In this document: piece by piece, positions 31,120 through 46,688 of the stretch
Position numbering within the stretch: position 1 is the stretch's first letter
Layout of the letters: each line of letters starts with the position of its first letter
Assembly (NCBI GenBank): GCA_010015585.1
Contig: ML975151.1
Reading direction: 5' to 3' (one strand)
Origin: Eremomyces bilateralis CBS 781.70
Taxonomy: Eukaryota
DNA length: 64,000 nt
The notes under the pieces: generated by a model
The model's database searches: none
What the model was told of the DNA's origin: nothing
Seen by the model: the letters and a program-made list of their open reading frames with translations, nothing else
Made by a program: the position numbers and the translations under genes

Positions 31120-32315
31120 ACTACTTAGCCGGCACTGTTAGACGAATGCAGTACTATCCAGGTGCAAGCCGGCCCTATTATAATCAATTTACGTTTAAAT
31201 TAGAGCCCAAGAAAACTTTATTATGTTGCCGAGTGTCGTCAGCCGCTCTACAGTTATATTCAGCAGAGCTTTCGGTCAACCAAATCGACATCGATATATC
31301 ACAGTGGATGGGTTATCTCACCAGCCACTCATGTCTCCTCTCCTACCATAGCGACGTGAGAGTTCCGGACGAAGAAAAATAAGCTTAGCCGATTACATTC
31401 TATTTAAGTATAAACTAATGAATCCCGATTCCCATTCCGCTACCACAGGATCTGACAGTATCTGGAAATCGGAGTTTGATTACGCCAAAATATGCTGTTG
31501 CCCCACCCGAGCCCCCACCCAGACCACCCAACAGATCCCCCAACAGACCCCGTAATTAACGGACCCCTCAAGGTACATAGTATGCACATAGGCATACTAA
31601 TGCTGTATTTGACCACCTGTAGCGCCACCAGTATCGTTTCTATTTTTAATAAAAAAACTCTTGGTAACTACACGTGAAGAGAGACATCGTATAAATCAAT
31701 ATAATTTAGAATAATAAGAAATAGAGCATATTTATTGACATTGTGGCAGGTGGTTGGTGAGGTGAGGTTTGAGGTTGGCAATTTTGCTACACTGTGTCTA
31801 CCATAATTAATGGACTGCTGTACGGAGTAGTACCGTACCATACACAATATTTGTACCCCGTACCCTGAGAGAACGTCCTGATTCCATCAACTTCAACCAT
31901 CTTTTCCGACTCTTTTTTCAGATTTACGAGATATCTACCAGCTAACTCCCGAAAGGGGCTTCTTTTCCCTCGAGTACAGCGGTTGAATACCATATTCCTT
32001 TTCAATGGACTGAATGCAACCCTGAGAACCTAATAGGTAGGTCCATTAAGTGCTGACAAAGAGAAGCAGCTATATCTCTGAAGTCAAGCTGCACGAGTCT
32101 TCAGCGAGGGGTCATGCTGTGAAGACGTGCAAGTGCTACGATGCTAGAGGGCTGCAGGCTGCGCCTCGGGCACAGCCTTATCTATCTCCTTTCGGCTTTT
32201 TAGATGATTCTATTTTATTCTCATTGATCCTCTACTTTTCGTTAGCGTCGCCTTCATGTCCTGATTTCAGTCTACAAATATGGCTTCATTTTCGACCGAT
32301 TTCGAGTTATGAGAC

Positions 32316-34991
32316 ATGGATTTCCCTTCCACTCCCAACCAGAATGATGATGACACCCTCTATACTCCCCTCCATCCTAATGAAATCCGCCTGTTAAAGT
32401 TGCTACCTGGGCCTTGGGGTATGCCTATATGTTGCGAACTTTCCCATGTACCTCTTTCGAACAAGCCAGCGTACAAGGCACTATCCTATGCTTGGGGATC
32501 TCGAAGACTTGTGGAGCCCGTCTTTCTTAACGAAACTCCACGACTAGTCACGAAAAATCTATACACTGCACTTTCGAGGCTCCGATCTGAAAATGAACCG
32601 GTCACGATATGGGTGGATGCTCTTTGCATCGATCAAGCGAATATCGATGAACGAGCAACTCAGGTTGCTATGATGCGAAGCATCTTTGCAAAAACCGACG
32701 AAGTCATTGTGCACCTGGATATTCCAAATCAGCATCTCAGAAATCATCGCCGATTGAGCCGAACTCCGCGGCCGGAATCATTCTTCCGTATGAGTGATTC
32801 TGATGATGCCCTTCTTGAGAAGTTTATGGGGCGTTTCAAAGTATCCGGGGATGGCTGCTTGCGGAGTCAACGTAGTCAGGTCGATGTCGGTACACAGGTG
32901 TTTTGTCTAATACGGCTCGTAGCCTCGGGGCGCCTCCATGAACTTATTTCTGCCGTTGCAGATCATCCTGATGGCTCTCTTCCTTCCATGTTATCCGATT
33001 TGTTTGAAAACCTCCGCTACATGTTGCGTTGCAGATGGTGGAACAGAGTATGGATCATTCAAGAGGTGGTCGTCCCAGAACGAGTAATGGTGTTCTATGG
33101 AGGAGCCATCGCCCCATGGGATATGTTGGTCAGTGCAGCTAAGGCCTGGCTGCCGGACGATTCGCGGAATTCTGATCCGCCATCCATCCCAAGGGAATAT
33201 TCACTGGTTCTTGACTACTTTGCCAAGCAAATACTGGGAATTGAGAAAATGCGAAGGCAGTGGAGATTCACCAACCAAACGACTCTTCTGCGGCTCTTGC
33301 GCCAATTTTCCGATCGAGAAGCATCTGATGACCGAGATAAAGTCTATGCGCTACTTGGACTAGTCACCCAATCCTTGAGTCTCCCTAACGGGCATATTCT
33401 ACTTCCAGACTACTCGTTGGACATAAAATCGGTTTTCATTAATGCAAGCCTATCTATTGTTCGGACAACCAGGTCACTATCAGTCATCGTCGTCGACAGT
33501 GCCCGCAAATATCGTCAAGATTTGCCATCATGGGCTGCTGATTGGACTGCCCCTGCGGATGACGCAGAACGAAAGCGAGCGGAAAAAATAGAACGATATG
33601 ACGCAACTGGGTGTTGGGATGTCCAAGTACAGCACGATACGGAAGAAGAATATGGTGGAATTGCGGCGAAGATAGATGGGATGGGTCAAAAGCACAGTCT
33701 CGAACAGGCCACCGGCATCAAATATGCAACAACTGTATCCGATTTCACCGCCATTCTTGGACATGCACAGTGGAAAGAATATCTTCTTTTGCCCGAGTCA
33801 ACTCGGGAAGACTGCCTTGAAGCCATTGAAACGTACGAAATGGCTAAAGGTGGGACAGTTTGGGCACGTCTATTAGATCAATCTATTCTCCAAGTCCCCG
33901 GTGTTCAGATCGATCGAGTGGCCAAGGTGTCAGAAGCCTGCTTTTCGGATCTCGAATTCCCCGCGGTTGTCAAAGAATGGGCTGTGCTTGCATTGTCGAA
34001 TCATCATGAATGGGGATCCGTGGCTACTTGGCTTGCCGACTTTGTTTACCCATTCCTTCACACGTTGGGCATCAACGTGAGCGAGGAAAACTCCCCGCCT
34101 ATTCAAGGTCCATCACAGTCAGATTTGGGGTGGTTGGTGCCTATGGAAGACTCCGAAACGCTGCCGCGCTGTATATCCGATGCACTTCTGGCTGCTAGCG
34201 GGAGACCAAGGCCATATGCGCCGATGAAGGAGCATCGTGGTGTCGAGCCAGCTCTAGCAGATGAGAGAGCAGAGGAACAACTCCTCAAGGTTGCGATAGA
34301 GCAATCATACCGACGTCGTTTCTTCGTTACCGCTACGGGTCACTTCGGCCTTGGACCTTTGAATCTTCAGGCTGCCGATCGTATTTACCTGCTTCCTGGA
34401 TCCAAGACCCCAGTTGTTCTTCGAGACGCTGGTAAACGGGAAACAGCACGCTTCAAGGGGATGGGCAAGCTTGGCACCGTGGAAAGAGAATGTCATGAAA
34501 TCATAGGGGATTGCTACATCCACCCTTATATGCAGGGACAGGCTCGCGAGCGTTTCCAGTCTGCGGCGGCTCAATGGGGCTCCAAATCAGATTTACGGCG
34601 TTGCATCGCCGCATTCGGATCCGCTGCCAAACAGCGCCGCGACCTTGAGATCCAGTTATTCAGACTCGGTACTCGAAAACTACAGCTATCTTCGCTGTTA
34701 GAAGACCTGGAAAAGCAATTCGAGAAGGACGAGGCATTTCCAGAAACCTTCCTCATGAATCGCATAAAGTCGGCCGATATTGTTCCAGAAATGGAGCGTC
34801 GGCAAGGGCAGATACCATCGAGCGAGCTTGTGCCCCAGATTCTGCGAGAGAGGCTCGTGGAGGTAGAGGAGAACAATTCCAAGACCGAGAGAGCCTTCAA
34901 CAGCGCAGTTGGTCAGGCAGAAGCCACGAAGAAGTCCCTCCTTGCCGCTGAGAAAAAATCGTCATCTAGCATCTTCGTCTATCTTGTTTAA
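32316..34991 (+). CDS. HET-domain (HET-6-like) heterokaryon incompatibility protein
   Basis: EIRLLKLLPG...YKALSYAWG...IWVDALCIDQAN..ERATQVAMMRSIF...WWNRVWIIQEVV...ASDDRDKVYALLGL...LPSWAADW...RRFFVT..GHFGLGP...IIGDCYIH. Confidence 0.92.
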   Translation: MDFPSTPNQNDDDTLYTPLHPNEIRLLKLLPGPWGMPICCELSHVPLSNKPAYKALSYAWGSRRLVEPVFLNETPRLVTKNLYTALSRLRSENEPVTIWVDALCIDQANIDERATQVAMMRSIFAKTDEVIVHLDIPNQHLRNHRRLSRTPRPESFFRMSDSDDALLEKFMGRFKVSGDGCLRSQRSQVDVGTQVFCLIRLVASGRLHELISAVADHPDGSLPSMLSDLFENLRYMLRCRWWNRVWIIQEVVVPERVMVFYGGAIAPWDMLVSAAKAWLPDDSRNSDPPSIPREYSLVLDYFAKQILGIEKMRRQWRFTNQTTLLRLLRQFSDREASDDRDKVYALLGLVTQSLSLPNGHILLPDYSLDIKSVFINASLSIVRTTRSLSVIVVDSARKYRQDLPSWAADWTAPADDAERKRAEKIERYDATGCWDVQVQHDTEEEYGGIAAKIDGMGQKHSLEQATGIKYATTVSDFTAILGHAQWKEYLLLPESTREDCLEAIETYEMAKGGTVWARLLDQSILQVPGVQIDRVAKVSEACFSDLEFPAVVKEWAVLALSNHHEWGSVATWLADFVYPFLHTLGINVSEENSPPIQGPSQSDLGWLVPMEDSETLPRCISDALLAASGRPRPYAPMKEHRGVEPALADERAEEQLLKVAIEQSYRRRFFVTATGHFGLGPLNLQAADRIYLLPGSKTPVVLRDAGKRETARFKGMGKLGTVERECHEIIGDCYIHPYMQGQARERFQSAAAQWGSKSDLRRCIAAFGSAAKQRRDLEIQLFRLGTRKLQLSSLLEDLEKQFEKDEAFPETFLMNRIKSADIVPEMERRQGQIPSSELVPQILRERLVEVEENNSKTERAFNSAVGQAEATKKSLLAAEKKSSSSIFVYLV

Positions 34992-41774: not shown

Positions 41775-42683
41775 AAAGTCTTTACCGCCTGCGAAGGATT
41801 ACAGCTTGAAAGCAGCGTAAAGCATTAATCATTGGTTAGTTAACTGAAAGATCATAACATAACTAACTAGTTAACTAGATGAAATCTAACCTAATTCGCA
41901 ATAGTATTCCTAACGCACCTAGTTGATTGACTGCAATTGTTCTATTTTTCCTAGTCATCGCTAGAGCAAATTGTTTCTAATCGACGCTTCTAGGCGTGAA
42001 ACGTAGAAACACGACCGACGAATATATAACACCTCACGTTAACTTCTCTACATGGCTATTGGCTAGTTATAAATGAGTAAACCTAACGCCCTGAAACCCA
42101 GCAGAAACCTGAAAGGTCTATGCCTTGAAAAGCTTGAACTTCAGTGTACCGTTCATGGCTGACCCTGACTCATTCCCCATCAGAACCCAAGTCTAGCAGA
42201 AGCACCATAGCGAATTGACTCGTTCTTGATTCTCTTTAGAGCAACCGAGAGGCGAGTACCTATTGTAGGACCAACAACAGCCACGGTGTTTTACCAGTCA
42301 CCACAGCACCCAAGCCGTTAATCAAACGATATTCTCTCTTTATTATTTTCAGCCCAGGTGACTCGATTTCTAACATCAAGGGGTCATGCAAAGCAGAGAG
42401 TTATGCAATGTAATCGCTAGATAGTAGGCAGTAGAGATTTCTTCACCTCACAAAGTCGGCCACAAAAGCTTGCCGGGATGAGTGCACAATGGGCTTGGTT
42501 TGGCATTGTCATGCTGTCAAAATCCAAGAATTCAAATATCTGTAGGTAACCCTTTAGCTTTTTGAATCTCTATGGCAATAAACAGGCTCTAGACTGAACA
42601 TATCAATTGATGTACTTCTCTAGCAGATACCGTAAGCCGTTTTCAAAATTCAATTCATATGCTTGCCCAACAGCGTTCAAAGC

Positions 42684-44502
42684 TCAAGCAGTCCCATCTA
42701 GTTCAAGTTTTCCTGCAGTTGGGTCCATATCCACTCGCTCGTGGACCTCTATCTCAGTGTTGACGTCGCCATTGGTTCTCTCCTGCTCCGAAATCTTGAC
42801 AACAAGATCAAACGCCTTCCGCATATGCTTCTCTGAGCCAAGTTCATTGCCATTTACCACCCGGATGGCATACACATCTCCCAGCTTCGTGCTCGTCAAG
42901 AAGAGCTCTCCACTCGCATTGATTGCTTCGTAGACTGCTTCAGTGACCGTGTTTGCGGCCTCCTGGTCCGTTGCGCCCTTGGGGTCCCGAGGTTTAACTG
43001 TGAAGACGACCAAGCCGAAATTGGCGGCCGTGACGATTTCGAACAAGTCAGATCGTTCACGTAGCCAGCCATCAAACTGTTCTCCAAGGCGAATACCTTT
43101 GTGAATGTGTGCTTGGAGGCCAGCGATACCGTACGTGCGGAGGACAATCCAGATCTTGATAGAGCGGAAACGGCGGCCAAGTGGAATCTGCCAGTCGCGG
43201 TAGTCTGTGACTAGGCTGGCATCCGACCATTTGTTGCGCAAAAATGGGGGAGTGATCGAGAGGGATGCCGTCACTTGCTGTGGGTTCTTAATAAACATGA
43301 TACTGGCACATATTAGCCATCTTCGGAGAACAAAAGTGTCATCCCTTACCTTGCATCGAAGTTGGTCAACAGCCATTTGTGCATGTTGAAGTCGAAGCTA
43401 TCAAAATGTTCCACGCCTTTCAAATGATACCGCAGTTCTGGACATATCATCGCTGATCCGGCATATGCTGCATCAACATGAACCCAAATCTCAGGCCAAT
43501 CTTTGAGAACTTCTGCGATCTCTTCGAACCGGTCCACCGCACAAGTGCTTGTAGTGCCTAAACTCACAGTCAGATAGTATGGCACGAGGCCTGCGCTCTT
43601 CGTATGTTCCAAAGCCGCTTTTAGGTCCGCCCCAGTCATCGCGAAATCATTATTGCGGCTGACAGGAACGCTGCGGTATCTTGTTCCAGCGATTCTCGCA
43701 GCTTTAGCGGTTGCAGAGTGTGCACATTCGCTCCCCAACGCAACCAGCTTGCTTCGGATGTCTCCAAGCTTGTCCTCCCGAGCCTCTTCTGCAGCCCAAT
43801 CCTCGTCAGTGCGAGGATCCATTCCTCCCGGGGGCTCGCCGGCCCGTTGGCGAAGGATCCTCTCCCTAGCGGTGACGAGAGCAATAACCACGGCTTCACT
43901 GGCACTGCCTTGAATGACGCCGCCGCCACCACCGGAGCTAAGGAAGCACTCCGGCATACCGAGCGCCTGTCCCACCCAGTCCATCATGACCGTTTCGAGC
44001 TCTGTGATGGCGGGACTGGCAATCCAGGAGAATGCTGGAGCGCTGAAAGCTGCCGAGTACAGCTCACCGAGCATTCCTGGATAGGAGCTGTTCGCTGGGA
44101 AGAATGCCATGAAGCTTGGGGATTGCCAATGAGTAAGGCCCGGCACGATCTTGGACGCGATGTCTGGTTGAATAGCGTCCCATTTCTCCGGCTCTTGTGG
44201 TGCAGAATCCGGGAGCAATGGGCGCAGATATCCGGGATGTATTGAAGAGTCCGGTAGCGCAGGGCGATCAGAAAGAGACTGACAGTAGCCAATAACTAAG
44301 GGAAGTTTTAACTCATGTCCACATTGTGCAGATACGAAGATGCCTCATCGAGAGCCGCAGACATGATATGCCATCAAGCTCGTGGAAATAATTCAACGAA
44401 CTCAAACTAAATAGATGACCGACATTGCAACCGAATACAAAAATGTTGCTTACTGTGTTCTATGGCTGCATGTGCCGCCTCTCGAAACTCGTTTGCATCC
44501 AT
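42684..44502 (-). CDS. Group II PLP-dependent aromatic-L-amino-acid decarboxylase family protein (Phe at catalytic-loop Tyr), 3 exons
   Basis: MDANEFREAA...PGLTHWQSPSFMAFFP...SPAITELE..MMDW...GGGVIQGSASEA...WVHVDAAYAGS...SFDFNMHKWLL (PLP Lys)...TPPFLRN...DYRDWQIPLGRRFRS. Confidence 0.93.
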
Positions 44503-45423
44503 CTTTTCCTCTCCAATTGATAAAATGCCAGGCCTTAAAAGATGCAACTCTATTCAAATCACAGTAGGACCTTCTAATTATCAGCGAATACGTGCCGATA
44601 AGGAGCCATGCGACTAACACAGATTTCGTCTAACATGCATACAGGTACGAATGCTACTGATTGGGTTACGTACGTACCATAATTAGTTATTGATATTCCA
44701 GCGTCAGTTCTTACGACAGAGAAATTTTGGGAAAGGTTCCGCTTGAGTTGGATCAGGCGAGATCGGGACGGATGCGAGCGGAAATGCTCCGCTCGGCAAA
44801 TATTTTCGGCATCCATTCCGCGTCAGGATCGCTCTCGAACAACCTTCAAATGAAGCAAGAGCATCTATTAAGATGAGAGAATGCCCGTACCCATTCAGAA
44901 GAACTACTCGGACATACGAAGCAAGGAAGAAAATAACGACGCCCCCTGATATCCATATGCCCAGCCCGCCCAGTCTGCTCATTAATCTGATCAATTGGGG
45001 TACACCAGTCATATCCTTTCATGGAGTTCTTTTGCCATATTATGACCTTAGGACTCAGTCCAGTCCATCACTATCAATTTTTCCCTACAAAGAAAGAAAG
45101 CAACCGAGGAGAAATTCCTATCCGCCATGGGTGACTGGGCAGTTGGAAGTCAATTGCTACCCCGCAAACCGCATGGATTGGGTTCGATCCACGAGGACAG
45201 GAGGACAAGGGTTGAGCTCTTTCCTGTCCAATTGAAACTGCAAGATGATAGAATGAATGTACGAGAAGCGGTACGAGAAACCTGTACGAGAGCGACGAGC
45301 GGAGTAAATGGTAAGTAGGATGCTGGTATTTATAAGATTGAGTCCCTGGTTGTGTGTATACTGCCCGTTAGGACTCTTTCGCTGCTGTTCAAAAGATATC
45401 AGATATCTCCAGAAACCGTAACC

Positions 45424-46688
45424 ATGTCCACCGTTTCGTTGTCCGAACTGGGACGATATCAGTCCATTCCTGAGACGAAGGTCGACCTACCCTATGCAGA
45501 CCTCATCACACTGGACCTATCAAAGTTTGACCAACCTGGAGGGAAAGAAGCTCTAGCGCAGCAACTCCACCATGCCATCCATACCGTGGGATTCTTCTAC
45601 CTCAAGAATTTCGGACTCAGTGACGAAGAGGTAGAAAGGCAATTTGACCTTGCCATTGACCTCTTCTCCCTTCCTCTGGACGAGAAGCTAAAGTACCCGA
45701 TCACGAACGAGTTGAAGGGTGGGCCGTTGGGATATAAGCCCCGAGGCGTGAGGAAAGGCGCGCATGGATTGATGGACAACAGCGAGATCTATGACGATCC
45801 GAAATATATCGACTTCTTCGAGCCGCGAGGGCGACCCGAGCCGTTTCAGCAAGCGAAGGTCGACACGGAGAAGTTCTGCAGACATATCCATGAACACATG
45901 CTCAAGCGGCTGCTGATCCTCGTCGCCATCATCATGGAGCTGGAGGATGAGGAGGCGTTATGGAAGATCCACGATTACTCCAAGGTTTCGAACTGCCACA
46001 TGAGGTACATGGTGCAGCATCCTCGGACGCCGGAGGAAATCGAGATCATGAGGGCGAAGGGGGGGGAAGAGGTGATATATGGACACACGGACTTTGGCAC
46101 GTTCACGTTTCTGTTTCGGCAGCCGATCGCTGGGTTGCAGGTTCGTTTGGAAGAGGAGAAAGAGTGGCGATGGGTGAAGCCGGTGGATGGTGCGTGCGTC
46201 GTCAATGTTGCGGTAAGTGTCAACTCGTCAGCCAATGCAAGGATCGAAGTAAATGCTAACTGCATTGGATTGGTTGTCTGCAGGATACATTGAGTTTCCT
46301 GACAGGGGGGTATCTGAAGAGCTCTATTCACCGGGTGGTACTGCCTCAGGAAGACCAACGGCACCTTCCACGCGTCGGCGTGATATACTTTTCGAGGCCA
46401 GGTATGACAGAATGCCCCTGAGCAATTCTGAGTTCTTGAGCTCACTCTGCACCTTCTAATGCATAACTGACAAGTGCTGCAGAGGAAGAGACGCTGTTAA
46501 AGCCTGTGGATTCGCCTGTCATCCGTCGCGTAGGCAACAAGTCCGTATTGCCACCGAATAACGCTCTCACATCAGCGGAATGGGTTCAGGCGCGGTATGC
46601 CAATATCCCTGCAAACTATGCACGAGGTCTCAGCGGCAGTGACAAGACGCGTCTGGTGAAGAACGTCGAAGTCAGGACTTATGCGTAA
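45424..46688 (+). CDS. 2-oxoglutarate/Fe(II) dioxygenase (IPNS/DIOX-like), 3 exons
   Basis: LITLDLSKF...LA.QLHHAIHTVGFFYLKNFG...GHTDFGTFTFLFRQPIAGLQV...WRWVKP....VVNVA|DTLSFLTGGYLKSSIHRVV; HxD..H triad. Confidence 0.9.

Follow-up and report, generated by a model that had tools for sequence, protein, structure and literature searches.

In plant enzymes of the group II decarboxylase family, Tyr at one position of the large catalytic loop gives amines and Phe at the same position gives aldehydes, as described in PMC7497351. The same text covers human DOPA decarboxylase (DDC), in which Tyr332 supports protonation of the quinonoid at C-alpha; the Y332F mutant formed no amine and yielded aldehyde and ammonia with O2. 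In bioRxiv 10.1101/404970, a single Tyr-to-Phe exchange was enough for PsTyDC to become a specific 4-hydroxyphenylacetaldehyde synthase, which also released ammonia and H2O2. The residue rule has already been published there, as has its application as a predictive fingerprint. Two fungal cases have been described. The DHPAAS of Psilocybe cubensis (PcDHPAAS) has Phe (PMC7497351), and IasA of Psilocybe mexicana, with Phe as F329, was expressed and assayed as an indole-3-acetaldehyde synthase (PMC11046786). Here we describe a decarboxylase homologue that carries a natural Phe at the same site; it comes from Eremomyces bilateralis CBS 781.70, which belongs to the Eremomycetales within the dothideomycetes.

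Like the protein studied here, IasA and PcDHPAAS are fungal homologues of the group II PLP decarboxylases in which the large-loop Tyr is replaced by Phe. For these two, aldehyde production was shown in vitro (PMC11046786 and PMC7497351), whereas the product of the E. bilateralis enzyme is predicted. Both Psilocybe enzymes are basidiomycete proteins of about 500 aa; the E. bilateralis protein belongs to a Pezizomycotina clade and has 537 aa. The Arabidopsis phenylacetaldehyde synthase AtPAAS (6eei) comes from another kingdom and is of independent origin. Its loop reads P-E-F-L-K-N where the E. bilateralis protein has P-P-F-L-R-N, the downstream segment IPLGRRFRS and the small-loop His are common to both, and the E. 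bilateralis protein has an insertion of about 30 residues (about 167-197) together with a C-terminal tail, both absent from AtPAAS. A second class of aldehyde synthases, the His-to-Asn class, includes the insect DHPAA synthase and the Eucalyptus PAAS. It shares the fold (match to 6jrl, E 2e-104), and its net reaction is the one predicted here. Members of that class keep the loop Tyr and replace the small-loop His, whereas in the E. bilateralis protein it is the Tyr that has been exchanged, and His209 is still present.

The gene lies on the minus strand at 44502-42684 of the window, the whole stretch of 64,000 nucleotides that was analysed, and comprises three exons. The spliced product of 537 aa is a 100% match to a hypothetical protein of E. 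bilateralis CBS 781.70 in the database (P0001). Pfam assigned a single domain, Pyridoxal_deC PF00282, to residues 37-435 (E 1.1e-106); the score of 357 bits against a gathering cut-off of 27 places the protein among the group II PLP-dependent amino-acid decarboxylases. The GC content around the gene was unremarkable (0.46-0.54). Positions of the gene parts and of the adjoining genes are collected in Table 1.

Table 1. Parts of the decarboxylase gene and its two adjoining genes in the window.
Feature	Position	Strand	Remarks
Exon 1	44454..44502	-	ATG 44502-44500; residues 1-16 and first base of codon 17; X3 contig joint 44454/44295
Intron 1	44296..44453	-	158 nt, GTAAGC..TTAG (GT..AG); X3 joint skips 158
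Exon 2	43350..44295	-	Residues 17-332; His209 codon 43720-43718; PLP lysine K323 codon 43378-43376
Intron 2	43303..43349	-	47 nt, GTAAGG..CCAG (GT..AG); X3 joint skips 47
Exon 3	42684..43302	-	Residues 332-537 and TGA stop; catalytic loop and C-terminal domain
Catalytic-loop segment LSITPPFLRNK	43230..43262	-	Residues 346-356; aligns to human DDC 326-336
Phe352 codon TTT	43242..43244	-	At catalytic Tyr position (human DDC Tyr332)
FAD_binding_4 oxidase	39884 to about 41800	+	Convergent with decarboxylase gene (Pfam)
2OG-Fe(II) oxygenase (DIOX_N)	45319-46290	+	Divergent from decarboxylase; about 0.8-1 kb between coding regions

The first-pass annotation of this DNA had read a loop LSITPPFLRN with Phe encoded by TTT at 43242-43244, had placed this Phe at the catalytic Tyr site and had called for a check of the sequence data for TAT, which is one base away from TTT. 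The minus strand does read L-S-I-T-P-P-F-L-R-N-K from 43262 to 43230, followed by WSDASLVTDYRDWQIPLGRRFRS, and contigs from all three sequencing runs compared (X1, X2 and X3) show TTT; we concluded that the codon is TTT and not TAT. The contigs of the DNA runs X1 and X2, which are possibly the source of the window itself, had no differences from it across 42600-44600. From run X3, which belongs to a second sample and study, a contig of 1896 nt was obtained that omits exactly 43303-43349 and 44296-44453, and no other letter differs; that X3 is RNA is a guess, and none of the listed runs is on record as RNA. The exact omission confirms both introns and indicates a spliced transcript carrying TTT, and judging from this contig alone the gene is probably expressed.

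The placement of Phe352 opposite Tyr332 of human DDC was likewise borne out by HMMER alignments. In a full-length phmmer comparison with human DDC (3rbf, E 4.4e-125) residues 308-410 aligned to DDC residues 288-390 without gaps, and the pairs were F352 with Tyr332, K323 with Lys303 and H209 with His192. The human and pig DOPA decarboxylases align with the protein from end to end, and human DDC was second among the solved structures matched to the whole protein; the best match was AtPAAS 6eei with E 1.7e-129. In alignments of exon 3, F352 stood opposite Tyr in CrTDC (6eew), OsTDC (6khn), PsTyDC (6eem) and 8x0o, while AtPAAS has Phe there. Thus the large-loop Tyr that marks the amine-forming decarboxylases (Tyr332 in human DDC, Tyr348 in CrTDC) is replaced by Phe352. 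The Phe is natural here, whereas in the Y332F mutant of DDC it was engineered.

The remaining active site was found to be kept. The Schiff-base lysine K323 in the H-K-W motif and the small-loop catalytic H209 are both invariant in an alignment of 20 sequences (A1), in which all 20 rows, the query included, hold K323, H209, D291, the GRRFR segment and SPxxTELE (x, variable). The HVDAAYAG segment is conserved in the query as well. With Phe at the large-loop Tyr and the other active-site residues retained, the protein has the active-site residues of the Tyr-to-Phe class, and since His209 is present it lacks the Asn that defines the His-to-Asn class. In an AF2 monomer model (mean pLDDT 76.1) confidence was low at residues 68-108 and 348-374, and Phe352 lies within a non-regular loop of low confidence (segments 348-350 and 352-374). 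Low confidence at 348-374 is what would be expected of a mobile catalytic loop.

Taken as a whole, the analysis suggests that the protein is probably an O2-dependent aromatic acetaldehyde synthase and not an amine-forming decarboxylase. The aldehyde product is deduced from the published enzymes that carry Phe at this site, i.e. human DDC Y332F, the plant aldehyde synthases and the Psilocybe enzymes PcDHPAAS and IasA. In such a reaction an aromatic L-amino acid would be bound as the external aldimine on PLP-Lys323 and lose CO2 to give the quinonoid. Because the hydroxyl of the loop Tyr, which assists protonation of C-alpha, would be missing, O2 would attack the carbanion instead, and the resulting peroxy intermediate would collapse to the arylacetaldehyde, NH3 and H2O2. 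It is unlikely that the enzyme still mainly forms amines, in which case His209 or water would protonate C-alpha and Phe352 would only slow the reaction or add a minor oxidation. Such an enzyme would fit the retained small-loop His, the proposal that in plants the Tyr may exert its effect by way of this His, and the mixed activities of insect mutants (both in PMC7497351), as well as the bifunctional His-to-Asn mutant of PsTyDC (bioRxiv 10.1101/404970). Against it speak the cases described in the cited sources, DDC Y332F, the plant Tyr/Phe swaps, PsTyDC after the Tyr-to-Phe exchange, PcDHPAAS and IasA, in each of which Phe at this site gave aldehyde and not amine.

The catalytic column was compared in 92 sequences, the query included, which were those of at least 430 aa among the best 120 of 6273 protein matches to exon 2 and were aligned with MAFFT. 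Tyr was found in 86 rows and Phe in three: the query, P0069 of Watsoniomyces obsoletus and P0119 of Massariosphaeria phaeospora. The other three rows held Ser, Leu and a gap and were visibly mis-modelled there. Without the query the close full-length homologues have Tyr in 86 of 91 and Phe in 2 of 91. In metagenome loci, 77 of the 80 fetched aligned at the site, with Tyr in 71, Val in four and Phe in two. A wider survey took the best 150 representatives of 50%-identity clusters by local alignment (11353 matches at E <= 0.001) and gave Tyr 118, Phe 14, Ile 4, Val 3, Leu 2, Ala 1 and Arg 1, with seven unaligned. Ten of the 14 Phe representatives were looked up; they came from the basidiomycetes Violaceomyces, Rhodosporidiobolus and Mixia, from Dimargaris, Chromera and Volvox, and from four other sources. 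These three sets of counts indicate that Phe has appeared at this site repeatedly among eukaryotes, yet few members of the ascomycete clade have it.

P0069 and P0119, which belong to the same clade as the query, have V-I-D-Y where the clade has V-T-D-Y in addition to Phe at the catalytic Tyr site; by their sequences they are candidates for further natural aldehyde synthases. A separate observation concerns P0154, P0243 and the metagenome loci L067, L073, L074 and L076, which have Val at the aligned site and Tyr one residue later (N-Q-A-V-Y); the subgroup may represent either a one-residue shift of the alignment or a different loop variant. When 14 Phe rows were compared with 158 Tyr rows, no column was found to covary with Phe, and the best candidate differed in only 43% of the Phe rows; this agrees with a switch that consists of the one residue. 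Among the best 120 of the 6273 protein matches no Tyr-type copy of E. bilateralis was seen, the only Eremomyces entry being the query. Since the 120 are a small part of all matches, this absence carries little weight.

In a FastTree phylogeny of 106 rows the query fell inside a clade of 88 rows, of which Lipomyces is the first branch. Its place within the clade was basal and unresolved, and its end branch was long (0.5 vs a median of 0.18). The Phe sequences of Violaceomyces, Rhodosporidiobolus and Mixia formed a clade of their own with a support value of 100, and a branch with a value of 99 parts these sampled basidiomycete Phe types from the clade of the query; the Psilocybe sequences were not in the tree. 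In a quick IQ-TREE analysis of 47 rows the three close Phe rows required three changes. Groupings for the AU test were chosen after the tree was known. A single origin for all three of the close Phe rows was rejected (p 1.6e-9), and so was a grouping of the query with Massariosphaeria P0119 (p 0.007). A grouping of the query with Watsoniomyces P0069 was not rejected (p 0.19, log-likelihood difference 36.8); Watsoniomyces belongs to the class Lichinomycetes, unlike the dothideomycete Eremomyces.

The trees give good support to an origin of the query Phe that is independent of both Massariosphaeria and the basidiomycete Phe clade. Independence from Watsoniomyces is likely, on the basis of the maximum likelihood tree and the different classes only. 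In line with the convergence put forward in the first-pass annotation, the trees place the Phe change within an otherwise Tyr-type ascomycete clade and apart from the basidiomycete Phe clade. The novelty that the annotation implied for a fungal aldehyde synthase was overstated, as Phe-type fungal enzymes have been characterised since 2018 and 2024 in Psilocybe.

The query also departs from its relatives elsewhere in the protein. At the 175 columns that were at least 90% uniform in the other 91 homologues it differs at 21, the top count of the 92 rows. The margin is small: two broken models reach 19 and 16, one further row 17 and Lipomyces 16, and with gaps counted as departures the query ranks 90th of 92. 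Four departures, N106S, C109A, L130M and L380I, are at sites invariant in all 91 others; F384I, G361S and R339P are additional ones. S106 and A109 are the residues that human DDC has at the aligned positions 104 and 107. The departures fit either adaptation after the switch or a somewhat relaxed constraint, and to that extent they weigh against the predicted aldehyde synthase.

If constraint were relaxed, the Tyr-to-Phe exchange could be just one among many mildly harmful changes in a gene that is losing its original role, and the enzyme would have low or no useful activity. We regard such drift as improbable, even though the top departure count with its four otherwise invariant sites, the long end branch and the unresolved basal position would agree with it. 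The frame is intact and both introns are precisely spliced in the transcript-like contig, the core motifs are kept in the query as in all other rows of A1, and other isolated lineages have similar departure counts (16-17). Furthermore, the best match to the query among the best 120 of 6273 has 65% identity and no close sequenced relative is listed, so that a longer Eremomyces branch would follow from that alone.

The residues of the pocket would fit an aromatic substrate. Taking the list of CrTDC pocket residues, including F124 and 369-370, from bioRxiv 10.1101/404970, the equivalent positions by offset are W73, F81, F82, P83, A84, H322, L373 and G374, and these are conserved across the fungal clade (A1). 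L373-G374, corresponding to 369-370 of CrTDC, are the residues of both AtPAAS and human DDC and are invariant in the fungal clade, so they do not discriminate among Phe, Tyr, Trp and DOPA. F105, next to N106S and C109A, would by the same alignment offset be the pocket residue F124 of CrTDC. These two exchanges, specific to the query, could hint at a shifted substrate preference. They also give some room to an aldehyde synthase acting on a non-aromatic or unusual amino acid, in the manner of the legume serine-decarboxylase-like (SDC-like) enzymes, whose substrates are hydrophobic amino acids. Acetaldehyde synthases of the SDC-like type have reportedly been described. A substrate of this kind is nevertheless highly improbable, given the conserved pocket and the L373-G374 pair shared with two enzymes that both act on aromatic substrates.

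The FAD oxidase and the 2OG oxygenase adjoin the decarboxylase gene (Table 1), and farther out are housekeeping genes: Brix and UPF1 lie on one side, heme oxygenase on the opposite side. A conserved partner, for instance an aldehyde dehydrogenase or a reductase, was not found beside the decarboxylase, which weighs against the predicted aldehyde synthase. When six neighbours (FAD oxidase, 2OG oxygenase, Brix, UPF1, heme oxygenase and C2H2) were searched by tblastn in 80 metagenome loci encoding relatives, 51 of which include 3 kb or more of flank on at least one side, there were no matches at E <= 1e-8. The result provides no evidence of a conserved gene cluster, and this idea was dropped; a cluster specific to the lineage may nevertheless exist.

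Two further features of the window were recorded. An open frame of 892 aa with a HET (heterokaryon incompatibility) domain lies at 32313-34988 on the plus strand. It gave weak tblastn matches in the metagenome loci L033 and L036, which also hold relatives of the decarboxylase; the co-occurrence is probably coincidental, as HET genes are numerous. At 9145-31116, Pfam searches on stop-to-stop ORFs detected a run of catabolic-looking genes, namely a Zn-ADH, a Zn2Cys6 transcription factor, AtuA with an AtuA ferredoxin-like domain, an OYE-type flavin oxidoreductase, a luciferase-like monooxygenase (two ORFs), an MFS transporter, an alpha/beta hydrolase, a cytosine/purine permease, a flavin reductase, a polysaccharide deacetylase and an amidase. 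By its domain content this run may be a degradative gene cluster.

Concerning other ascomycetes, no aldehyde synthase of the group II decarboxylase family was found in the literature searched, which takes in few subscription journals. The E. bilateralis enzyme could, tentatively, be the first aromatic acetaldehyde synthase of an ascomycete, with a Tyr-to-Phe exchange of its own in a Tyr-type Pezizomycotina clade and separate from the basidiomycete and plant enzymes. As the mechanism and the diagnostic residue are textbook knowledge in plants and have been published for Psilocybe, the gain is one of annotation and evolutionary breadth and not of a new principle. The proposed functional re-annotation, from a decarboxylase to a predicted aldehyde synthase, is well founded. 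If it is true, the database name of the family (aromatic-L-amino-acid decarboxylase or dopa decarboxylase-like) misstates the reaction of this protein, and the same misnaming would apply to about one in ten related clusters, namely those with Phe (14 of the best 150 representatives). An ascomycete case would then be added to the repeated route by which a single residue turns a decarboxylase into an aldehyde synthase. If the gene is the sole copy, E. bilateralis would have exchanged the synthesis of arylethylamines for an O2-dependent route to arylacetaldehydes that needs one enzyme. Auxin-type acids or aryl alcohols are formed from arylacetaldehydes, and the enzyme would provide a direct step from an amino acid to an arylacetaldehyde in a poorly studied order of fungi.
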